Shown here piece after piece: positions 1,478 to 64,000 of a DNA stretch of 64,000 bases. Origin of the DNA: Escherichia coli (GTDB lineage Bacteria; Pseudomonadota; Gammaproteobacteria; Enterobacterales; Enterobacteriaceae). The notes under the pieces were generated by a model that worked only from the letters and a program-made list of their open reading frames with translations, was not told the DNA's origin and did not search any database. The DNA lies in the NCBI RefSeq assembly GCF_030013205.1, contig NZ_CP122648.1. One strand, written 5' to 3'. Within the stretch, counting starts at the first letter, position 1. The number at the start of each line of letters is the position of its first letter. The position numbers were made by a program, and so were the translations under genes.

Positions 1478-2150
1478 GTGCACAGAAAACCCCCAGCTAG
1501 GCTGGGGGTTCCGGAAAGCTTTCAGCTTTGAGCCAGTTATTAAAACCCCTTTTGATTTGTTAAAACACCTTGCGGTCTGGCAACTGCAAGTGTCAAACAA
1601 GAAATCAAAAGGGGGTCCCAATGGGGAACGAAAAGAGCTTAGCGCACACCCGATGGAACTGTAAATATCACATAGTTTTTGCGCCAAAATACCGAAGACA
1701 GGTGTTCTACAGAGAGAAGCGTAGAGCAATAGGCAGTATTTTGAGAAAGCTGTGTGAGTGGAAAAGCGTACGGATTCTGGAAGCTGAATGCTGTGCAGAT
1801 CATATCCATATGCTTGTGGAGATCCCGCCCAAAATGAGCGTATCCGGGTTTATGGGATATCTGAAAGGGAAAAGCAGTCTGATGCTTTACGAGCAGTTTG
1901 GTGATTTGAAATTCAAATACAGGAACAGGGAGTTCTGGTGCAGAGGGTACTACGTCGATACAGTGGGTAAGAACACGGCGAAGATACAGGATTACATAAA
2001 GCACCAGCTTGAAGAGGATAAAATGGGAGAGCAGTTATCGATTCCCTATCCGGGCAGCCCGTTTACGGGCCGTAAGTAACGAAGTTGGATGCAAATGTCA
2101 GATCGTGTGCGCCTGTTAGGGCGCGGCTGGTAAGAGAGCCTTATAGGCGC
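1478..2150 (+). mobile_element. IS200-like insertion sequence (IS200/IS605 family); boundaries approximate
   Basis: carries a 152-aa Y1/HUH transposase ORF; perfect hairpin aaacccccagctaggctgggggtt near the left side; sits between two convergent-gene terminators; exact ends not determinable without a reference. Confidence 0.6.
1621..2079 (+). CDS. tnpA: IS200-type transposase TnpA (HUH/Y1 family)
   Basis: 152 aa from internal ATG of track ORF 1570..2079: MGNEKSLAHTRWNCKYHIVFAPKYRR... with HIH motif (ADHIHMLVEIPP); near-identical to IS200 TnpA as I recall it. Confidence 0.9.
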   Translation: MGNEKSLAHTRWNCKYHIVFAPKYRRQVFYREKRRAIGSILRKLCEWKSVRILEAECCADHIHMLVEIPPKMSVSGFMGYLKGKSSLMLYEQFGDLKFKYRNREFWCRGYYVDTVGKNTAKIQDYIKHQLEEDKMGEQLSIPYPGSPFTGRK

Positions 2151-51347: not shown

Positions 51348-53282
51348 ATGGCGAAAAACCTAATACTCTGGCTGGTCATTGCCGTTGTGCTGATGTCAGT
51401 ATTCCAGAGCTTTGGGCCCAGCGAGTCTAATGGCCGTAAGGTGGATTACTCTACCTTCCTACAAGAGGTCAATAACGACCAGGTTCGTGAAGCGCGTATC
51501 AACGGACGTGAAATCAACGTTACCAAGAAAGATAGTAACCGTTATACCACTTACATTCCGGTTCAGGATCCGAAATTACTGGATAACCTGTTGACCAAGA
51601 ACGTCAAGGTTGTCGGTGAACCGCCTGAAGAACCAAGCCTGCTGGCTTCTATCTTCATCTCCTGGTTCCCGATGCTGTTGCTGATTGGTGTCTGGATCTT
51701 CTTCATGCGTCAAATGCAGGGCGGCGGTGGCAAAGGTGCCATGTCGTTTGGTAAGAGCAAAGCGCGCATGCTGACGGAAGATCAGATCAAAACGACCTTT
51801 GCTGACGTTGCGGGCTGCGACGAAGCAAAAGAAGAAGTTGCTGAACTGGTTGAGTATCTGCGCGAGCCGAGCCGCTTCCAGAAACTCGGCGGTAAGATCC
51901 CGAAAGGCGTCCTGATGGTCGGTCCTCCGGGTACCGGTAAAACGCTGCTGGCGAAAGCGATTGCAGGCGAAGCGAAAGTTCCGTTCTTTACTATCTCCGG
52001 TTCTGACTTCGTCGAAATGTTCGTCGGTGTGGGTGCATCCCGTGTTCGTGACATGTTCGAACAGGCGAAGAAAGCGGCACCGTGTATCATCTTTATCGAT
52101 GAAATCGACGCCGTAGGCCGCCAGCGTGGCGCAGGCCTGGGCGGTGGTCACGATGAACGTGAACAGACTCTGAACCAGATGCTGGTTGAGATGGATGGCT
52201 TCGAAGGTAACGAAGGTATCATCGTTATCGCCGCGACTAACCGTCCGGACGTTCTCGACCCGGCGCTGCTGCGTCCTGGCCGTTTCGACCGTCAGGTTGT
52301 GGTTGGTTTGCCAGATGTTCGCGGTCGTGAGCAGATCCTGAAAGTTCACATGCGTCGCGTACCATTGGCACCCGATATCGACGCGGCAATCATTGCCCGT
52401 GGTACTCCTGGTTTCTCCGGTGCTGACCTGGCGAACCTGGTGAACGAAGCGGCACTGTTCGCTGCTCGTGGCAACAAACGCGTTGTGTCGATGGTTGAAT
52501 TCGAGAAAGCGAAAGACAAAATCATGATGGGTGCGGAACGTCGCTCCATGGTGATGACGGAAGCGCAGAAAGAATCGACGGCTTACCACGAAGCGGGTCA
52601 CGCGATTATCGGTCGCCTGGTGCCGGAACACGATCCGGTGCACAAAGTGACGATTATCCCACGCGGTCGTGCGCTGGGTGTGACTTTCTTCTTGCCTGAG
52701 GGCGACGCAATCAGCGCCAGCCGTCAGAAACTGGAAAGCCAGATTTCTACGCTGTACGGTGGTCGTCTGGCAGAAGAGATCATCTACGGGCCGGAACATG
52801 TTTCTACCGGTGCGTCCAACGATATTAAAGTTGCGACCAACCTGGCACGTAACATGGTGACTCAGTGGGGCTTCTCTGAGAAATTGGGTCCACTGCTGTA
52901 CGCGGAAGAAGAAGGTGAAGTGTTCCTCGGCCGTAGCGTAGCGAAAGCGAAACATATGTCTGATGAAACTGCACGTATCATCGACCAGGAAGTGAAAGCA
53001 CTGATTGAGCGTAACTATAATCGTGCGCGTCAGCTTCTGACCGACAATATGGATATTCTGCATGCGATGAAAGATGCTCTCATGAAATATGAGACTATCG
53101 ACGCACCGCAGATTGATGACCTGATGGCACGTCGCGATGTACGTCCGCCAGCGGGCTGGGAAGAACCAGGCGCTTCTAACAATTCTGGCGACAATGGTAG
53201 TCCAAAGGCTCCACGTCCGGTTGATGAACCGCGTACGCCGAACCCGGGTAACACCATGTCAGAGCAGTTAGGCGACAAGTAA
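51348..53282 (+). CDS. ftsH: ATP-dependent zinc metalloprotease FtsH
   Basis: 644 aa from [20 protein letters not shown] (ATG three codons inside the TTG-initiated track ORF); Walker A GPPGTGKT and HEAGH zinc motif. Confidence 0.96.
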
Positions 53283-58300: not shown

Positions 58301-59659
<1,359 letters not shown>

Positions 59660-59991: not shown

Positions 59992-60068
<77 letters not shown>

Positions 60069-60747: not shown

Positions 60748-62235
<1,488 letters not shown>

Positions 62236-62259
62236 TAAACTGTAGCAGGAAGGAACAGC

Positions 62260-64000
62260 ATGACAGATGTAACGATTAAAACGCTGGCCGCAGAGCGACA
62301 GACCTCCGTGGAACGCCTGGTACAGCAATTTGCTGATGCAGGTATCCGGAAGTCTGCTGACGACTCTGTGTCCGCACAAGAGAAACAGACTTTGATTGAC
62401 CACCTGAATCAGAAAAATTCAGGCCCGGACAAATTGACGCTGCAACGTAAAACACGCAGCACCCTTAACATTCCTGGTACCGGTGGAAAAAGCAAATCGG
62501 TACAAATCGAAGTCCGCAAGAAACGCACCTTTGTGAAACGCGATCCGCAAGAGGCTGAACGCCTTGCTGCGGAAGAGCAAGCCCGTCGTGAGGCAGAAGA
62601 ATCGGCTAAACGCGAGGCGCAACAAAAAGCTGAACGTGAGGCCGCAGAACAAGCTAAGCGTGAAGCTGCTGAACAAGCGAAACGTGAAGCTGCGGAAAAA
62701 GACAAAGTGAGCAATCAACAAGACGATATGACTAAAAACGCCCAGGCTGAAAAAGCCCGCCGTGAGCAGGAAGCTGCAGAGCTCAAGCGTAAAGCCGAAG
62801 AAGAAGCGCGTCGTAAACTCGAAGAAGAAGCACGTCGCGTTGCTGAAGAAGCACGTCGTATGGCGGAAGAAAACAAATGGACTGATAACGCGGAACCGAC
62901 TGAAGATTCCAGCGATTATCACGTCACTACTTCTCAACATGCTCGCCAGGCAGAAGACGAAAGCGATCGTGAAGTCGAAGGCGGCCGTGGCCGTGGTCGT
63001 AACGCGAAAGCTGCGCGTCCGAAGAAAGGCAACAAACACGCTGAATCAAAAGCTGATCGTGAAGAAGCACGCGCAGCAGTACGTGGCGGTAAGGGCGGAA
63101 AACGTAAAGGTTCTTCGCTGCAGCAAGGCTTCCAGAAGCCTGCTCAGGCCGTTAACCGTGACGTTGTGATCGGCGAAACCATCACCGTTGGCGAACTGGC
63201 GAACAAGATGGCGGTTAAAGGCTCTCAGGTCATCAAAGCGATGATGAAACTGGGCGCAATGGCAACCATCAACCAGGTTATCGATCAGGAAACCGCACAG
63301 CTGGTTGCTGAAGAGATGGGCCACAAAGTTATCCTGCGTCGTGAAAACGAGCTGGAAGAAGCGGTAATGAGCGACCGTGACACGGGTGCAGCGGCTGAAC
63401 CGCGCGCGCCGGTTGTGACCATCATGGGTCACGTTGACCACGGTAAAACCTCTCTGCTGGACTACATTCGTTCAACGAAAGTGGCCTCTGGCGAAGCGGG
63501 CGGTATTACCCAGCACATTGGTGCATACCACGTTGAAACTGAAAACGGCATGATCACCTTCCTGGACACCCCGGGGCACGCCGCGTTTACTTCAATGCGT
63601 GCTCGTGGTGCGCAGGCAACGGACATCGTAGTCCTGGTTGTTGCTGCCGACGACGGCGTAATGCCGCAGACCATCGAAGCAATCCAGCACGCGAAAGCGG
63701 CGCAGGTTCCGGTGGTCGTTGCAGTGAACAAGATCGATAAACCAGAAGCCGATCCGGATCGCGTTAAGAACGAACTCTCCCAGTACGGCATCTTGCCGGA
63801 AGAGTGGGGCGGTGAAAGCCAGTTCGTACATGTGTCTGCGAAAGCGGGTACTGGTATCGATGAGCTGCTGGACGCTATCCTGCTGCAGGCGGAAGTTCTG
63901 GAACTGAAAGCGGTACGTAAAGGCATGGCGAGCGGTGCGGTTATCGAATCCTTCCTCGATAAAGGTCGTGGTCCGGTTGCTACCGTTCTGGTACGTGAAG
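62260..64000 (+). CDS. infB: translation initiation factor IF-2 (5' part; truncated by the window end)
   Basis: open frame from ATG about 25 nt after the nusA stop, [32 protein letters not shown]..., through the G-domain motifs GHVDHGKTS and DTPGH to the last base; no stop in the window. Confidence 0.95.

Follow-up and report, generated by a model that had tools for sequence, protein, structure and literature searches.

Charged repeats, an absent repeat unit and spurious antisense reading frames in the IF2 N-terminal region of an Escherichia coli strain

The gene for translation initiation factor IF2, infB, contains a low-complexity stretch in its N-terminal coding region, and in the DNA analyzed here (64,000 nucleotides of E. 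coli contig NZ_CP122648.1, assembly GCF_030013205.1, referred to below as the window) this stretch, at positions 62540-62900, is overlapped by long open reading frames (ORFs) on the opposite strand. This raises the question of whether the interval holds genes other than infB and whether its repeats differ from those of other strains. With high confidence, the interval can be described as residues 95-215 of E. coli IF2, which would form two long charged helices built from 8- and 7-residue repeats, in which a repeat unit is occasionally lost or gained and opposite which the minus-strand ORFs arise as by-products. Overall this biology is already known, and the only unusual point of the interval is that the strain is without one 8-residue repeat unit.

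The identity of the gene is clear. infB occupies positions 62260..64000 on the plus strand, with an ATG start at 62260 downstream of the end of nusA at 62235; 580 codons lie inside the window, the 3' end lies beyond it, and codons 94-214 are those that fall in 62540-62900. The product matches the full-length E. coli IF2 sequence in the PDB (3JCJ and others, E=3.4e-181) and gives Pfam matches to IF2_N (two copies, 1.6e-27), IF2_assoc (residues 56-94, 1.4e-17) and GTP_EFTU (residues 385-541, 1.1e-37), so that the IF2 architecture of IF2_N, IF2_assoc, IF2_N and GTP-binding domain is present. The window aligns without mismatch to positions 511997-575996 of the E. coli ETEC4079 chromosome, where the annotation of the same DNA lists the gene order nusA-infB-rbfA-truB and assigns infB to WP_000133055.1. 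An Rfam scan returned the rimP leader and tRNA-Met, both upstream of the interval, and no match within it.

The initial annotation had described the interval as rich in A/E/K/R repeats, and indeed both peptides that it quoted are found, within codons 95-215. The repeats form two arrays. Array 1 (62569..62706, plus strand) belongs to the C-terminal part of domain I and comprises 5.75 units of 24 nt or 8 residues of the type A-E-E-Q-A-K-R-E; it is confined to the longest isoform, IF2-alpha, and counts six units here versus seven in K-12. Array 2 (62788..62871, plus strand) lies in domain II and is made of 24-nt and 21-nt units. Tandem Repeats Finder detects three stretches, two with a 24-nt period (62587-62701, 4.8 copies, 74% matches; 62788-62837, 2.1 copies, 88% matches) and one with a 21-nt period (62824-62871, 2.3 copies, 85% matches). 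The periodicity of both arrays exceeds what composition alone produces: array 1 has 26 residue matches at lag 8, compared to 7.7±2.4 expected from composition-preserving shuffles (z=7.8), and the domain II array shows z=4.0 at lag 7 and z=2.9 at lag 8, likewise against shuffles. The description of the repetitive DNA as GC-rich has to be abandoned, however, as its GC content is 53.2% compared to 51.5% for the window and 55-58% deeper in infB. Its outstanding trait is a poverty in T (T 11.1%, A 35.7%, AT skew +0.44 to +0.55).

An AlphaFold2 model built on an alignment of 34 sequences, with block pLDDT values of about 70-87, predicts a first long helix at residues 96-151 (62545..62712), a break at 152-157, a second long helix at residues 158-207 (62731..62880) that forms the N-terminal part of domain II, and disorder at 206-262; with a pTM of 0.26, the mutual arrangement of the two predicted helices is not fixed by the model. 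Both helices have the sequence character of charged single alpha-helices (ER/K), being rich in E and K/R and without a hydrophobic seam: opposite-charge pairs at i,i+4 are enriched in helix 1 (z=3.9) and in helix 2 (z=5.7), and hydrophobic residues account for 2 of 56 and 5 of 50 positions, respectively. Residues 98-157 were reportedly described as helical by Laursen et al. in J Biol Chem in 2003. A literature search for a single alpha-helix in IF2 returned nothing relevant, and a preprint regards the N-terminus of IF2 in its entirety as intrinsically disordered (PMC11838494), which counts against the single-helix reading. Helix 1 is part of full-length IF2-alpha only, in which, we infer, it may serve as a stiff, charged spacer that sets the N1 sub-domain apart from the remainder of the protein. 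Predicted helix 2 lies at the beginning of domain II, a domain that is specific to enterobacteria and targeted by lamotrigine.

The flagged interval also contains the internal starts of the short IF2 isoforms, which the initial annotation did not mention. Three isoforms of IF2 are known (PMC12297416), with internal start positions at residues 158 and 165 (PMC10486304), and a known infB internal start site was readily detected by Ribo-RET (bioRxiv 10.1101/520783). At the equivalent positions the window has an in-frame GTG for IF2-beta (62707..62709, codon 150, K-12 codon 158) and an in-frame ATG for IF2-gamma, also called beta2 (62728..62730, codon 157, K-12 codon 165); codon numbers in this strain are offset by 8 because of the missing array-1 unit. 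Of 82 sequences, 70 have the ATG and all 82 have the GTG, despite the availability of four valine codons. The translation-initiation region around the IF2-beta start (codons 141-151, 62680..62712) shows almost no synonymous variation among 81 sequences: normalized codon entropy is 0.17 at codons 141-150 against a mean of 0.485, the lowest of any 10-codon block in 390 codons, while at infB's own start it is 0.20. Constraint is hence visible at the level of the nucleotides. As judged from the sequence, the internal starts are a gene-within-a-gene signal of the kind that a scan should recognize, initiation at them and the shorter proteins being known from the literature cited above.

Comparison of the repeat copy number with K-12, which the initial annotation had proposed, identified a rare allele. 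The K-12 unit GCGGAAGAGCAAGCGCAGCGTGAA (AEEQAQRE), flanked there by the 14-nt direct repeat GCGGAAGAGCAAGC, is lacking at the junction 62568..62569 (plus strand). The resulting 941-nt form with six units was found in 3 of 5,425 complete E. coli genomes, nearly all others having 965 nt, and longer alleles of 989 nt and 1013 nt in 4 and at least 2 genomes, respectively; these counts are lower bounds, since they were obtained with full-length 941-nt and 989-nt BLAST queries and BLAST splits alignments at repeat indels. Across enterobacteria, 68 sequences have seven array-1 units and 12 have eight, and in none of 80 other species is array 1 as short as in the window. The expectation that the length of the region is polymorphic among enterobacteria was correct as far as the region varies, but among enterobacteria the variation is confined to array 1 and to whole 8-residue units, while the domain II repeat core (residues 165-204) is 39 residues long in 82 of 82 sequences. 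Within E. coli, rare deletions do occur in domain II: 24 nt (8 residues) are deleted in 29 records, namely CNR20191027 and 28 'Esc' isolates, whose near-identical chromosome sizes indicate that they are probably one lineage, and 21 nt (7 residues) in 4 records, among them AR_0149, H32 and AH21H025.

Every one of these indels is a whole unit and all alleles remain in frame. Perfect 14-nt direct repeats flank the array-1 deletion as well as the 21-nt deletion. Backgrounds bearing 6, 7, 8 and 9 units show no SNP differences in 993 columns, and the three 6-unit alleles are 5-8 SNPs apart from each other while all encoding WP_000133055.1. Because identical SNP backgrounds carry six to nine units and because the 6-unit alleles differ by SNPs, the unit changes appear to be recurrent, which points to repeated events of gain and loss. 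Since the repeats are near-identical direct repeats of 21-24 nt, units can be lost or gained in frame, and we infer that this occasionally happens by slippage or recombination between them; the allele in the window would be one such loss, from seven to six units. The infB repeats are polymorphic at low frequency, with in-frame changes that recur.

It could be argued that the number of array-1 units does not reflect neutral or mildly deleterious slippage but a selected tuning of the length of the IF2-alpha spacer, lineage by lineage. Such a reading would accommodate the restriction to whole 8-residue units, the difference between genera with seven units (68 sequences) and eight (12 sequences) and the recurrence of the events, and it gains some plausibility from the binding of NusA by domain I, which contains N1 (PMC12297416), and from the correlation of N-terminal length with growth temperature across bacteria (PMC11838494). 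Whole-unit in-frame changes are, however, the ordinary output of slippage when tolerated by purifying selection, array-1 variants are very rare in E. coli (about 9 of 5,425 genomes), seven units strongly predominate across genera, and the variant strains come from pig, human and cat hosts without a shared ecology. Selected length tuning is therefore unlikely. In its most pointed form, array 1 would be an evolvable ruler whose 8-residue units, each about 12 Å of helix, adaptively tune the distance between N1 and the ribosome-binding body; if this were true, the 6-unit allele of this pig ETEC would measurably affect transcription-translation coupling or growth in the cold, a prediction we consider slightly less likely still. 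The preferred reading remains occasional slippage within a tolerated repeat.

The ORFs opposite the repeats exist as reported, at 62409..62714 (101 residues, with AASR-type repeats) and 62419..63039 (206 residues), and a third one of 53 residues lies at 62715..62876, all on the minus strand; a further ORF of 135 residues runs in an alternative frame of the sense strand (62762..63169). The alternative, in which at least one of the three minus-strand ORFs is a real antisense gene within infB, would be in keeping with the length of two of them (206 and 101 residues), with reports of antisense overlapping genes in E. coli (PMC9927249, PMC5810103), and with a paper that places infB high in a ranking by antisense translation potential (PMC10400600). 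Yet the lengths are unremarkable. Synonymous recoding of infB leaves the 206-residue stretch open in 15-38% of trials, the 101-residue stretch in 31-43% and the 53-residue stretch in 73-82%, and the probability of a longest run at least as long as observed in the codon-aligned antisense frame is 0.55-0.88 under recoding. Equal or longer antisense runs are present in 8 other genes of the window. Because the region has 5 antisense stops, compared to 3.0±1.5 expected from recoding, it shows no selection for openness. In 81 other sequences from enterobacteria and K-12, the homologous stretches are free of stops in 25 (206 residues), 45 (101 residues) and 73 (53 residues) cases, which means that stops break up the two longer ones in 56/81 and 36/81 sequences, about as often as expected by chance. 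In their predicted products the ORFs simply mirror the IF2 repeats as low-complexity sequence, and a Pfam search of the antisense ORFs gave no match at E≤0.1. A simple sigma-70 consensus match found no promoter-like site on either strand in 62200-63300, terminator-like matches on the minus strand (3 versus 2.2±1.5 in shuffled sequence) are not above expectation, and a literature search did not turn up any description of an antisense gene within infB. With conservation at the chance level and neither a promoter nor a protein family of their own, the overlapping-gene reading was rejected, and an antisense gene here is very improbable.

On these grounds the earlier warning against mistaking the antisense ORFs for genes is well founded, while its explanation of why the frames are open holds only in part. 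The repeats do locally exclude leucine and serine codons; but the DNA is not notably GC-rich and the same codon-aligned antisense frame is open for longer in genes without repeats, namely nusA (433 codons), ftsH (560 codons) and argG (370 codons). Antisense stops are scarce because codons for A, E, K, R and Q are poor in T, while each such stop needs a TTA, CTA or TCA in the sense sequence. The 206-residue ORF, which lies in the codon-aligned frame, is long because that frame is closed only by these rare codons; it has only 4 stops in the 1,740 nt of infB in the window, and the two Ser-TCA codons that delimit the ORF, at 62419 and 63046, lie at a clear distance from the repeats. The minus-strand ORFs would accordingly be by-products of T-poverty and rare-codon avoidance, and on the sequence evidence they are spurious. 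The same T-poverty would account for the 135-residue plus-strand ORF, which is judged spurious as well, its frame being stop-free in only 2 of 81 orthologous stretches.

Least credible of all is a sequencing or assembly artefact as the source of the 24 nt missing in comparison with K-12. Short-read assemblies can collapse tandem repeats, but a 24-nt unit is far shorter than the reads, and the three complete genomes with this allele, which differ in laboratory, host, country and SNP background, all encode the same protein, WP_000133055.1.

For annotation, the consequence is that the 206-, 101- and 53-residue minus-strand ORFs and the 135-residue plus-strand ORF should not be called as genes, for the general reason of sense-strand T-poverty and rare-codon avoidance rather than anything peculiar to the infB locus. 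The 206-residue ORF is a typical shadow ORF, the name for long antisense ORFs that highly expressed genes contain in codon-aligned register, and the repeats add only local T depletion.

The repeats themselves are comparable to coding VNTRs that change by slipped-strand events, with which they share units that are multiples of three, whole-unit changes, perfect flanking repeats and recurrence on identical haplotypes. They differ from phase-variable contingency loci in being without frameshift or on/off switching and in residing in a housekeeping gene that is essential and does not encode a surface protein; classification as such a locus was rejected because units are multiples of three, alleles are in frame and variants make up <1% of the 5,425 genomes. 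At the protein level, the 56- and 50-residue predicted helices resemble ER/K single alpha-helices and EAAAK-type rigid linkers in their high content of E plus K/R, their i,i+4 pairing and their few hydrophobic residues, and depart from classical ER/K motifs in a far higher alanine content (22-29%) and a regular 8-residue period. The likeness probably indicates a similar way of working and does not by itself demonstrate membership.

In alleles of infB that confer resistance to lamotrigine, part of domain II is deleted in frame or duplicated, and one of them, a 17-residue deletion (K-12 residues 176-192), partly overlaps array 2 (PMC4371806, PMC10486304). The natural 8- and 7-residue deletions fall in the domain II repeat array, and the laboratory-selected deletions also map to domain II; the array hosts rare natural deletions in a region known to set lamotrigine sensitivity. 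The window, in contrast, has a wild-type domain II, and the unit that it lacks belongs to domain I, upstream of where IF2-beta begins.

The closest comparison is IF2 of E. coli K-12 (infB, 890 residues, domains I-II, isoforms IF2-alpha, -beta and -gamma), whose place in the operon metY-rimP-nusA-infB-rbfA-truB is common to both. The two share the repeats, both internal starts (GTG and ATG) and the sequence of domain II, and the aligned N-terminal regions are identical except for one repeat unit: IF2 of the window has 882 residues, is without the unit at K-12 residues of about 104-111 and has its internal starts at codons 150 and 157 (in K-12, 158 and 165), an 8-residue loss that touches only IF2-alpha.

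The infB reading frame opens with the ATG at position 62260 on the plus strand, 25 nt past nusA, and together with rimP and nusA occupies the 3' end of the window in the RefSeq annotation, with 580 codons lying inside before the window end truncates the gene. The whole 64,000 nt are found without a mismatch in the E. coli ETEC4079 chromosome (NZ_CP122643.1, 511997-575996). The rimP-nusA-infB genes are preceded by the tRNA-Met gene metY (59992-60065, plus strand; 61 bits for the Rfam tRNA family) and by the rimP leader RF01770 (60150-60250, plus strand; 102 bits, gathering score 47), which is the usual layout of this operon. Far from this locus, an IS200C-family tnpA (1621-2079, plus strand) is inserted between mdh and degS. 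In the infB product, a Pfam search placed IF2_N at residues 1-50 and 306-356, IF2_assoc at residues 56-94 and the GTPase domain from residue 385 onwards, while no family covered the stretch encoded by 62540-62900 (codons 94-214).

This stretch carries two repeat arrays. Tandem Repeats Finder detected two plus-strand arrays with a 24-nt period (62587-62701 and 62788-62837) and one with a 21-nt period (62824-62871); in codon register the first array extends over 62569-62706 (46 residues, plus strand). Both peptides quoted in the initial annotation are found in the infB translation, and the periodicity of the arrays exceeds mere low complexity: in the first array 26 residues match at a lag of eight compared with 7.7±2.4 in shuffles that keep composition (z=7.8), and the domain II array is periodic at lags of seven (z=4.0) and eight (z=2.9) against the same kind of shuffle. 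The description of the DNA as GC-rich does not hold, with 53.2% GC in the region against 51.5% in the window and 55-58% deeper in infB. It is instead extremely T-poor (T 11.1%, A 35.7%, AT skew up to +0.55).

Comparison of the repeat copy number with K-12, proposed earlier as a check, revealed a difference that had been overlooked, as the first array has six units in the window and seven in K-12. Where infB of the window has its first 941 nt, K-12 and nearly all of 5,425 complete E. coli genomes have 965 nt; the 941-nt form occurs in only three of these genomes, ETEC4079 (pig, Belgium), N18-04097 (human, Canada) and Z1323PEC0008 (cat, South Korea), which share one identical 882-residue protein already in RefSeq (WP_000133055.1). 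The absent unit is GCGGAAGAGCAAGCGCAGCGTGAA (AEEQAQRE), which in K-12 has the 14-nt direct repeat GCGGAAGAGCAAGC on either side. The same unit is doubled in a 989-nt form (four genomes), and a 1013-nt form (at least two genomes) has in addition a third AAEQAKRE copy, so that variants of the first array amount to about 9 of 5,425 genomes. In the second array, 24 nt (KLEEEARR) are missing from 29 records, CNR20191027 and 28 'Esc' isolates, the latter probably one lineage because their chromosome sizes are near-identical, and 21 nt flanked by the 14-nt repeat GAAGAAGCACGTCG are missing from four records.

The backgrounds of these alleles suggest that the unit changes are recent and recurrent. Over 993 gap-free columns the six-unit allele of N18-04097 is identical to the seven-unit allele of K-12, the eight-unit allele of BS74R-D, the nine-unit allele of M15 and the domain II deletion allele of AR_0149, whereas the three six-unit alleles differ pairwise by 5-8 SNPs and the 21-nt deletion is found on two backgrounds 6 SNPs apart. 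Units could be gained and lost through slippage or recombination between the direct repeats. A contingency locus can be dismissed, since every change is in frame and rare. As far as we could find, the polymorphism within the species and its recurrence are not discussed in the searchable literature, although both would be expected for coding tandem repeats.

Across species, the segment between residue 94 and the GTG of the internal start measures 64 residues in 67 of 80 other enterobacterial species, as in K-12, 72 in 12 and 63 in one; only the window has 56. Seven units are thus ancestral and the window allele is a derived deletion, shorter than in every sampled species. The domain II core (residues 165-204), on the other hand, has 39 residues and a nearly invariant sequence in all 82 sequences (these species, K-12 and the window), and the earlier remark that the length is polymorphic among enterobacteria is therefore right for the first array and a short stretch past residue 204, not for the domain II repeats. 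Two database records stood out in this comparison. The 'Citrobacter freundii' M-21 infB, with eight units and 83% identity to the query, is probably mislabelled; most other Citrobacter loci have seven units and 89-92% identity, and Citrobacter sp. JGM124 is also at 83%. The Affinibrenneria salicis scaffold NZ_VYKJ01000001.1 contains two oppositely oriented infB 5' regions (~398 kb and ~674 kb) that are identical across the aligned slice; part of an essential gene has either been truly duplicated or been assembled twice in error.

The minus strand has the two ORFs described earlier, 62409..62714 (101 aa) and 62419..63039 (206 aa), along with a further one at 62715..62876 (53 aa). Minus-strand stop codons read as TTA, CTA or TCA on the plus strand, and in the codon-aligned antisense frame infB has only four such triplets in the 1,740 nt within the window. 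The 206-aa ORF is the gap between two Ser-TCA codons, at 62419 and 63046, and hence reaches far past the repeats. Openness of this frame is common in the window: it extends over 560 codons in ftsH (51348-53282), 433 in nusA, 370 in argG (58301-59644) and more than 200 in five more genes, and about one in three of the 62 window genes has a run of at least 100 codons in the frame used by the 101-aa ORF. Nearly all of nusA, which is non-repetitive, is spanned by a codon-aligned 489-aa antisense ORF (60934-62403, minus strand), longer than any over infB. In 5,000 synonymous recodings of infB that followed the codon usage of the window, the 206-aa, 101-aa and 53-aa stretches remained free of stops in 15-38%, 31-43% and 73-82% of cases, and the longest codon-aligned run was at least as long as the observed 208 codons in 55-88%. 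Five antisense stops were observed in the flagged region against 3.0±1.5 predicted, so that openness is not being selected for, and the homologous stretches are stop-free at about the recoding expectation (25/81, 45/81 and 73/81 among the 80 species and K-12). No sigma-70-like site was found on either strand of 62200-63300, no Pfam match at E≤0.1 for the three products and no Rfam family inside the flagged interval. All of this upholds the earlier conclusion that the antisense ORFs are not genes. The cause given for them, repetitive GC-rich DNA, is imprecise: the repeats help by locally excluding Leu and Ser codons, but for the most part these are shadow ORFs of the kind that generally arise in genes avoiding TTA, CTA and TCA. 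The T-poverty of the region also accounts for a plus-strand alternative-frame ORF at 62762..63169 (135 aa), which is spurious as well since it is stop-free in only 2 of 81 orthologous stretches; another, of 48 aa (62564-62710, plus strand), lies over the same T-poor sequence.

Also overlooked were the internal starts. The last unit of the first array is degenerate (AAEKDK-VS) and includes GTG at 62707-62709, seven codons before ATG at 62728-62730; IF2-beta and IF2-gamma/beta2 start in frame at these two codons, which are codons 158 and 165 in K-12 (PMC10486304, PMC12297416). The known internal start site of infB is readily picked up by Ribo-RET (bioRxiv 10.1101/520783). The start Val codon is GTG in 82/82 sequences despite four available Val codons, and the ATG is retained in 70/82. 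Synonymous variation reaches its minimum at codons 141-150, where the normalised codon entropy falls to 0.17 (mean 0.485; 0.20 at the gene's own start); codons 145-147, 149-151 and 153 are invariant in nucleotide sequence and codon 148 (Asp) is variable, a pattern characteristic of internal ribosome binding. As a whole, the initial observation is confirmed and its interpretation partly supported; infB with its three isoforms, the repetitive and helical N-terminal region, and shadow ORFs in general are all well-described biology.

The IF2 N-terminal region promotes both condensation in response to cold and fitness in the cold (PMC11838494), and the Enterobacteriaceae-specific domain II is the target of lamotrigine, to which resistance arises by in-frame deletions, including one of 8 aa and one of 17 aa (K-12 residues 176-192), or by a short duplication in this domain (PMC4371806, PMC10486304). 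The natural deletions lie in domain II like the laboratory-selected ones, namely the 8-aa KLEEEARR deletion (equivalent to window 62809-62832) in the clinical urine isolate CNR20191027 (NZ_OZ369157.1) and the 28 'Esc' records, and a 7-aa deletion in AR_0149, H32 and AH21H025; by analogy, such strains may be intrinsically insensitive to lamotrigine.

AlphaFold2, run on a 34-sequence alignment, placed residues 96-151 (block pLDDT about 70-87) and residues 158-207 in two predicted helices, with a low-confidence break at residues 152-157, exactly between the two internal starts, and disorder at residues 206-262; the pTM was only 0.26, so that the mutual arrangement of these parts is not predicted. 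Residues 98-157 reportedly formed a repetitive hydrophilic helix in the NMR work of Laursen et al. from 2003. The first helix might act as a semi-rigid spacer that grows or shrinks by about 12 Å per unit. Loss of one unit, as in the window, shortens only IF2-alpha; IF2-beta and IF2-gamma stay unchanged. That variants are rare and that seven units prevail across genera suggests mild purifying selection which keeps the array near a favoured length. With hardly any hydrophobic residues (2/56 in the first helix, 5/50 in the second) and an excess of oppositely charged i,i+4 pairs (z=3.9 and z=5.7, respectively), the predicted helices resemble charged single alpha-helices and EAAAK-type rigid linkers, but they differ from classical ER/K helices in their higher alanine content.
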